The notes below the pieces were generated by a model. It was given only the letters and a program-made list of their open reading frames with translations. It did no database searches and was not told the DNA's origin. This document shows, in pieces, positions 58,266 through 58,955 of a stretch of 64,000 bases of DNA; position 1 is the stretch's first letter, and every line of letters starts with the position of its first letter. Location of the stretch: NCBI RefSeq assembly GCF_058153355.1, contig NZ_CM177019.1; one strand, written 5' to 3'. The position numbers and the translations under genes were made by a program.

Positions 58266-58955
58266 ATGGAACTGCTTTTATTGAGTAACTCGACGCTGCC
58301 GGGAAAAGCCTAGCTGGAACACGCGCTGCCGCTGATTGCTGAACAGTTGCAGGGTCGCCGTTCAGCGGTATTTATTCCTTTCGCGGGCGTAACGCAGACC
58401 TGGGATGATTACACAGCGAAAACGGCTGCGGTTCTCGCTCCGCTGGGTGTTTCTGTCACCGGTATTCATAGCGTTGTCGATCCCGTTGCCGCGATTGAAA
58501 ATGCGGAAATTGTGATTGTCGGCGGCGGTAATACTTTCCAGTTGCTGAAACAGTGCCGCGAGCGCGGGCTGCTGGCACCAATTACTGACGTGGTGAAACG
58601 TGGCGCGCTGTATATTGGCTGGAGCGCAGGCGCTAACCTTGCTTGCCCAACCATTCGTACCACCAACGATATGCCGATTGTCGATCCGCAAGGTTTCGAT
58701 GCGCTAAATCTGTTCCCGCTGCAAATCAACCCGCACTTCACCAACGCGCTGCCGGAAGGCCATAAAGGTGAAACCCGTGAGCAGCGTATTCGCGAACTGC
58801 TGGTCGTCGCGCCAGAACTGACGATTATTGGTCTGCCGGAAGGTAACTGGATCACAGTAAGTAAAGGTCACGCTACGCTGGGTGGCCCGAACACCACTTA
58901 TGTGTTTAAGGCTGGTGAAGAAGCGGTGCCGCTGGAAGCGGGTCACCGTTTTTAA
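58266..58955 (+). pseudogene. pepE: dipeptidase E (alpha-aspartyl dipeptidase) interrupted by in-frame amber codon at codon 16
   Basis: ATG 58266 gives MELLLLSNSTLPGKA then TAG (58311-58313), then the frame continues [20 protein letters not shown]... to the normal PepE end at 58955. Confidence 0.7.

Follow-up and report, generated by a model that had tools for sequence, protein, structure and literature searches.

The analysed stretch, referred to here as the window, comprises 64,000 nucleotides of contig NZ_CM177019.1 (assembly GCF_058153355.1) and represents a syntenic Escherichia segment carrying uvrA ... dnaB ... mal ... pgi, lysC, yjbD, rluF, pepE, yjbB and metH. Since pepE stands alone between rluF and yjbB, a stop codon within it is not expected to exert a polar effect. 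The features on which the analysis turns are the following.

57182..58054, minus strand: rluF, divergent neighbour of pepE, intact
58257..58260, plus strand: GGAG, the native Shine-Dalgarno sequence, at a spacing of 5 nt from the ATG, unchanged and identical to K-12
58266..58955, plus strand: pepE (peptidase E, alpha-aspartyl dipeptidase, MEROPS/Pfam S51), read as a pseudogene with one nonsense codon, otherwise intact
58309..58313, no strand assigned: destroyed Dcm site, CCTAG here versus CCTGG in TGG alleles
58311..58313, plus strand: amber codon TAG in place of Trp16 (TGG), the altered base being the A at 58312
58314..58316, plus strand: CTG immediately after the TAG, taken by PGAP to initiate a 213-aa 'PepE' in both complete genomes with the W16 amber allele
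58347..58955, plus strand: 202-codon ORF left beyond the stop, opening with an in-frame TTG, reported by gene callers, with no Shine-Dalgarno sequence upstream
58399..58403, no strand assigned: second Dcm site of pepE, CCTGG, with the Trp46 codon at 58401-58403, intact in the window
59045..60676, minus strand: yjbB, convergent neighbour of pepE, intact

The pepE gene and its surroundings

The pepE frame extends from the ATG at 58266 to the TAA at 58953-58955, and its translation begins MELLLLSNSTLPGKA, followed by the stop and then LEHALPL; the TAG at codon 16 is the only internal stop. The remaining 228 codons show 99.6% amino acid identity to E. coli K-12 PepE; in tblastn, the K-12 protein aligns over 229/229 residues, interrupted by a single stop at position 16. 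A first-pass annotation of this DNA had recognised TAG where TGG (Trp) was expected, a single G-to-A change in a gene that is otherwise intact and conserved, and both observations are confirmed by the translation, by relatives carrying TGG and by the conservation of the other codons. It had also considered that homologues might generally lack Trp at this position. However, codon 16 is TGG in K-12, in strain 2017-02-2CC and in Citrobacter koseri, and Trp16 is likewise present in the Salmonella enzyme (PDB 1FY2), although Tyr takes its place in 7C9B, a solved but distant homologue. The nearest pepE allele among complete E. coli genomes is that of strain 2017-02-2CC, which departs from the window at two of 761 nt, the codon 16 base being one. 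When GTDB representative genomes were scanned for the TAG/TGG pattern, only Citrobacter koseri was recovered, with TGG.

With Trp restored at codon 16, the product matches Pfam PF03575 (Peptidase_S51) over residues 3-205 (E=2.6e-65, 220 bits) and PDB 1FY2 over residues 1-229 (E=1.4e-136). The catalytic triad of PepE consists of Ser120, His157 and Glu192 (PMC9239234), and all three codons are kept in the window gene, within GWSAG (S120), NPHF (H157) and LPEGN (E192). The restored product is therefore a full-length orthologue of the PepE of Salmonella enterica and E. coli (family S51; PDB 1FY2, 1FYE and 6A4R), and the rluF-pepE-yjbB synteny is shared with known PepE loci; in the window, however, the uninterrupted frame of a functional peptidase E is broken at codon 16. 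A literature search for a described E. coli pepE pseudogene returned nothing specific.

Several further features were observed around the gene. REP-like palindromes occupy approximately 58960-59040 in the gap between pepE and yjbB (gccggatgcatgatccggc ... gcctgatgcgacgc...gcgtcttatcaggcctac), and they probably explain the second match per genome obtained in BLAST searches with this region. In the lysC-yjbD interval (window 53488-56380), an island of roughly 3.4 kb that is absent from K-12 carries three genes, whose products belong to the zeta-toxin family (PF06414), the RlaP nucleotidyltransferases (PF10127) and the slipin/Band_7 family (PF01145). The island has the appearance of a toxin or defence module. 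About 1,424 of the 5,426 complete E. coli genomes contain most of it; identity is typically near 94%, and the best match (98%) is found in the goat strain R32_14_1F. In addition, highly divergent versions stand in place of the yjbL/yjbM region (window 24038-25009), with 55% and 41% amino acid identity to K-12, against 96-100% in the flanking genes. The K-12 alignment skips from psiE to the malG end at window positions of about 44457-44463, and tblastn detected no XylE (the D-xylose:H+ symporter encoded in the psiE-malG interval of K-12) in the window; yjbS was likewise not found there.

Authenticity of the stop and genomic background

The altered base is present in other public data. Over 7,128 nt the NCBI draft GCA_015332025.1 is identical to the window, and over 6,773 nt so is the Logan assembly of SRR8656992, whose contig was seen in 3 samples; TAG is included in both cases. 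Furthermore, 36 K-12 orthologues were matched full-length in the window by tblastn, and an internal stop was found in pepE alone; since the 35 others lack internal stops, the window is neither degraded nor poorly sequenced. A sequencing or assembly error in a genome that truly reads TGG, which the first-pass annotation had left as an option, would belong to the commonest error type, a single-base difference, and the closest TGG allele is only two bases in 761 away from the window. Such an error is nevertheless contradicted by the two exact matches of about 7 kb. Codon 16 TAG also occurs in many other assemblies, two complete genomes among them, and none of the window's other tested genes is broken. 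An artefact at 58312 is thus very unlikely, to the point of being negligible.

Because both the rest of pepE and the 35 other K-12 orthologues are intact, the loss of pepE appears recent and isolated, and the W16 amber codon is best read from the sequence as a real, recent, strain-level allele with a predicted loss of function. A Shigella-like or decaying genome was also considered for the window and dropped, since the other checked genes are intact and the DNA on the lysC side is the slipin/RlaP/zeta-toxin island rather than insertion sequences.

The strain background bears on whether the stop could be suppressed. Long aligned segments of the window share 92-97% identity with MG1655; the best complete RefSeq E. 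coli genomes reach 98.2-98.7%, and none of the 5,426 complete E. coli genomes matches at 99% or more. On these identities, the window represents a divergent lineage outside the 5,426 complete genomes and does not come from the K-12, B, C or W laboratory strains. Amber alleles are maintained in suppressor K-12 laboratory strains, as exemplified by the rpoS amber allele in supE strains, and the window shares with these an in-frame TAG in a normal gene but differs from them in not being K-12-like.

Full-length PepE could still be made if a suppressor tRNA of the supE or supF type were present or if the TAG were read through. No tRNA genes were found in the window, so that a suppressor encoded elsewhere in the genome is conceivable. 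A C after the TAG also makes for comparatively weak termination, and trace read-through is possible. Against this, suppressors are rare in natural isolates, and the window is not of K-12 type. In addition, the stop is sporadic, whereas a programmed read-through site would be conserved; TGG occupies the position in the nearest alleles and in other genera. Suppression or read-through is thus barely credible, and the amber-suppressor laboratory lineage proposed earlier finds no support, as the identities exclude a standard laboratory lineage.

A Dcm site at codon 16 and recurrence of the allele

In alignments, TGG alleles read GCC TGG CTG across codon 16 and hence contain CCTGG, an instance of the Dcm motif CCWGG; neither this site nor the recurrence described below had figured in the first-pass annotation. 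The G-to-A change at 58312 is equivalent to a C-to-T change at the inner C of the minus-strand CCAGG, yielding CTAGG. A Dcm-site scan of pepE revealed only two sites, each in a register that exposes a Trp codon, W16 in one and W46 in the other. The target of Dcm is the inner cytosine of CCWGG, which it methylates on both strands. In the proposed sequence of events, Dcm would methylate the minus-strand inner cytosine paired with the G at 58312, spontaneous deamination would convert the 5-methylcytosine to thymine, and a T:G mismatch missed by very-short-patch (Vsr) repair would leave the site fixed as CCTAG, the single G:C-to-A:T transition turning Trp16 from TGG to TAG. With codon 16 lying at such a hotspot, the same nonsense allele would be expected to arise repeatedly in unrelated E. 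coli. CCWGG is a known hotspot for G:C-to-A:T changes at the methylated base, opposed by Vsr repair (PMC13250602; PMC2715241; PMC10710837), and Dcm amber hotspots were reportedly shown in natural populations by Cherry (2018), as cited in PMC10710837. From this geometry, we infer that Dcm methylation followed by deamination caused the change in the window strain.

The opportunity for such events is wide. The window contains 167 Dcm sites, and 45 amber-prone Trp or Gln codons (CC-TGG or C-CAG-G) were counted across 36 of its genes, which amount to 35.2 kb of coding sequence. By extrapolation, thousands of at-risk codons would exist per genome, and an occasional event in a dispensable gene is therefore expected. 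The same count gave only 4 CCTAG/CTAGG pentamers, the pepE mutation being one of them. The arrangement resembles the 5-methylcytosine amber hotspots in lacI, reportedly described by Coulondre, Miller and colleagues in 1978: motif, methylated base, G:C-to-A:T change, amber outcome and independent recurrence are the same. The two cases differ in that the classic lacI example involves CAG within CCAGG in a reporter gene, whereas pepE involves Trp TGG within CCTGG, deamination on the antisense strand, and a chromosomal housekeeping gene in wild strains, where methylation is predicted.

The W16 amber allele occurs on different E. coli backgrounds. Nine distinct nucleotide haplotypes carry it. They form at least six groups, separated from one another by 5-22 of 690 nt, with the qualification that the four TAG haplotypes associated with a sorbose island are only 1-4 nt apart and possibly reflect one inherited TAG rather than separate events. 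The neighbourhood also varies, with or without this island. The island itself, a sorbose PTS/sorE cluster between rluF and pepE, is present in many E. coli (loci L004, L005, L007-L012 and L025 of the comparison); it is missing from the window, where rluF lies directly upstream of pepE. Haplotype-matched queries against the 5,426 complete RefSeq genomes identified two with the W16 amber codon, DETEC-S560 and UTAK-6, while a 55-nt query with the window's own haplotype found no match among complete E. coli genomes, and the TAG pattern was likewise not found in the JGI metagenome contigs scanned.

For four of the W16 amber groups, a TGG twin only one base away over 690 nt was found. The TAG alleles of L005, L004 and L013 have 689/690 twins in complete genomes, of the ATCC 11775, WP2-W18-ESBL-08 and ATCC 8739 types, respectively, and the DETEC-S560 allele is the K-12 allele plus the G-to-A change at codon 16. 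The nearest TGG allele to the window's own haplotype differs at the codon 16 base and at one other. Furthermore, the nearest SNPs lie 9 nt upstream and 11 nt downstream, and each of their four possible combinations with TAG and TGG is observed.

A survey of stop-creating transitions in pepE was carried out by exact-word searches seeding only on mutants in the 5,426 complete E. coli genomes. It covered 15 candidate positions, 2 at Dcm sites and 13 elsewhere. W16 TAG was found in 2/5,426 genomes and W46 TAG in 1/5,426 (strain 7_33_46A, annotated as 'internal stop'), the three genomes amounting to two or three events. At the 5 non-Dcm Trp positions and 8 Gln codons, no stop-creating transition was detected among the same genomes, with control queries for W195 and W16 TGA that miss some haplotypes. 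All three hits thus lie at the 2 Dcm positions and none at the 13 others, although the counts are small. One hit of the Gln control, H83, was rejected as a false seed in which the spacer base meets the A182E variant, and pepE is intact in that genome.

A different lesion was observed in locus L010 (Logan SRR17335133), where TGG16 is kept and a frameshifting 10-bp deletion lies directly after codon 17, within codons 18-21. Judged from its sequence, this deletion would be an independent route to pepE inactivation.

Two other accounts of the recurrence need to be weighed. E. coli recombines, and a single ancestral TAG allele could have spread among backgrounds in this way; the close similarity of the four sorbose-island haplotypes fits shared descent, and very short gene-conversion patches are a formal possibility. 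Such a transfer, however, would require patches so short that their breakpoints fall within 9 nt and 11 nt of the stop on its two flanks, and four TAG haplotype groups have a TGG twin identical at the other 689 positions. The independent hit at W46, the second Dcm-site Trp codon, set against none at the 13 non-Dcm candidate positions, is also left unaccounted for by transfer. Repeated independent mutation is favoured because it is far more economical than the transfer of tiny patches, and spread by recombination is considered quite unlikely. Positive selection for pepE loss, for example as an escape from a toxic Asp-peptide, with the hotspot merely supplying the mutation, agrees with the recurrence of inactivation and with the different lesion in L010. 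Yet pepE nonsense alleles are rare (3/5,426 complete genomes), and they are limited to the hotspot positions, whereas selection for loss would spread them over the gene. Moreover, overexpressed E. coli PepE was inactive on microcin C (PMC9239234). Selection is therefore an unlikely account, if somewhat less so than recombination. A more specific form, in which the two Dcm Trp codons serve as preferred breakpoints for a niche-favoured loss of PepE, such as resistance to a PepE-activated toxic Asp-X peptide, is a speculative idea of very low likelihood.

Consequences for the protein and its annotation

As the Shine-Dalgarno sequence and the ATG are unchanged, translation should start normally, and ribosomes would initiate at the native site and terminate after 15 residues. 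Because this stop precedes Ser120, His157 and Glu192, no active peptidase E would result. The sequence thus makes it most likely that the window strain produces no functional PepE, which supports the proposal of the first-pass annotation that PepE is inactivated in this strain.

Initiation at CTG 58314 or TTG 58347 would rescue the gene if it yielded a functional, N-terminally truncated PepE. Both codons are in frame and open intact ORFs of 213 and 202 codons, and public annotation carries the truncated products as 'dipeptidase PepE'. Gene calls giving precisely this 202-aa product occur on contigs in 39 public-collection blocks and on 29 contigs, and in the two complete W16 amber genomes PGAP reports a 213-aa 'dipeptidase PepE', WP_231232227.1 (L021 1530-2171, NZ_CP116094.1; L022 1530-2171, NZ_CP157151.1). 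Nevertheless, CTG and TTG are weak start codons, and no GGAG/AGGA-type ribosome-binding motif precedes either. The S51 domain starts at residue 3, and its first 14-25 positions would be missing from the truncated products; the restored PepE aligns with the solved Salmonella enzyme from residue 1. A single-sequence AlphaFold2 model of PepE had a mean pLDDT of 51, too poor for structural claims. The annotation is, moreover, automatic and inconsistent, the W46 stop being classed as a pseudogene with an internal stop (L025 590-1279, NZ_CP074819.1). A functional truncated enzyme is therefore decidedly improbable. Given the weak starts, the missing ribosome-binding motifs and the lost start of the domain, the 213-aa and 202-aa products are probably annotation artefacts. 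The earlier suggestion of a weak product from the TTG at 58347 holds as regards the in-frame ORF of 202 codons but not as regards the product, which would have no Shine-Dalgarno sequence and would lack the first 25 S51 positions.

PepE is dispensable in Salmonella and E. coli, where its function overlaps with that of other peptidases. Non-essentiality, together with the stand-alone position of pepE, would allow the allele to persist, and its loss is probably nearly neutral. Altogether, a W16 amber mutation at a Dcm hotspot, resulting in no active peptidase E through a recent and near-neutral loss, is the best overall explanation and a probable one.

These results also bear on how such alleles are recorded. 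The pseudogenes that PGAP labels 'internal stop', such as pepE W46 amber in 7_33_46A, likewise combine one premature stop with an intact gene and occur sporadically at the tips; the W16 allele is treated unlike W46, as PGAP gives it a shortened CTG-start CDS and no pseudogene call. Equivalent alleles are consequently found as a 202-aa or 213-aa 'dipeptidase PepE' or as an 'internal stop' pseudogene, and pepE should be flagged as a pseudogene in the window genome. The W16 amber allele opens no new biological question but provides a clean natural example of the textbook Dcm amber rule. The recurrence of the allele in unrelated E. coli is attributed to the hotspot at codon 16. In E. coli, amber mutations are most likely to recur at Trp and Gln codons that lie within Dcm sites, and a nonsense allele found in identical form in unrelated strains therefore need not point to common descent but may be a homoplasy.
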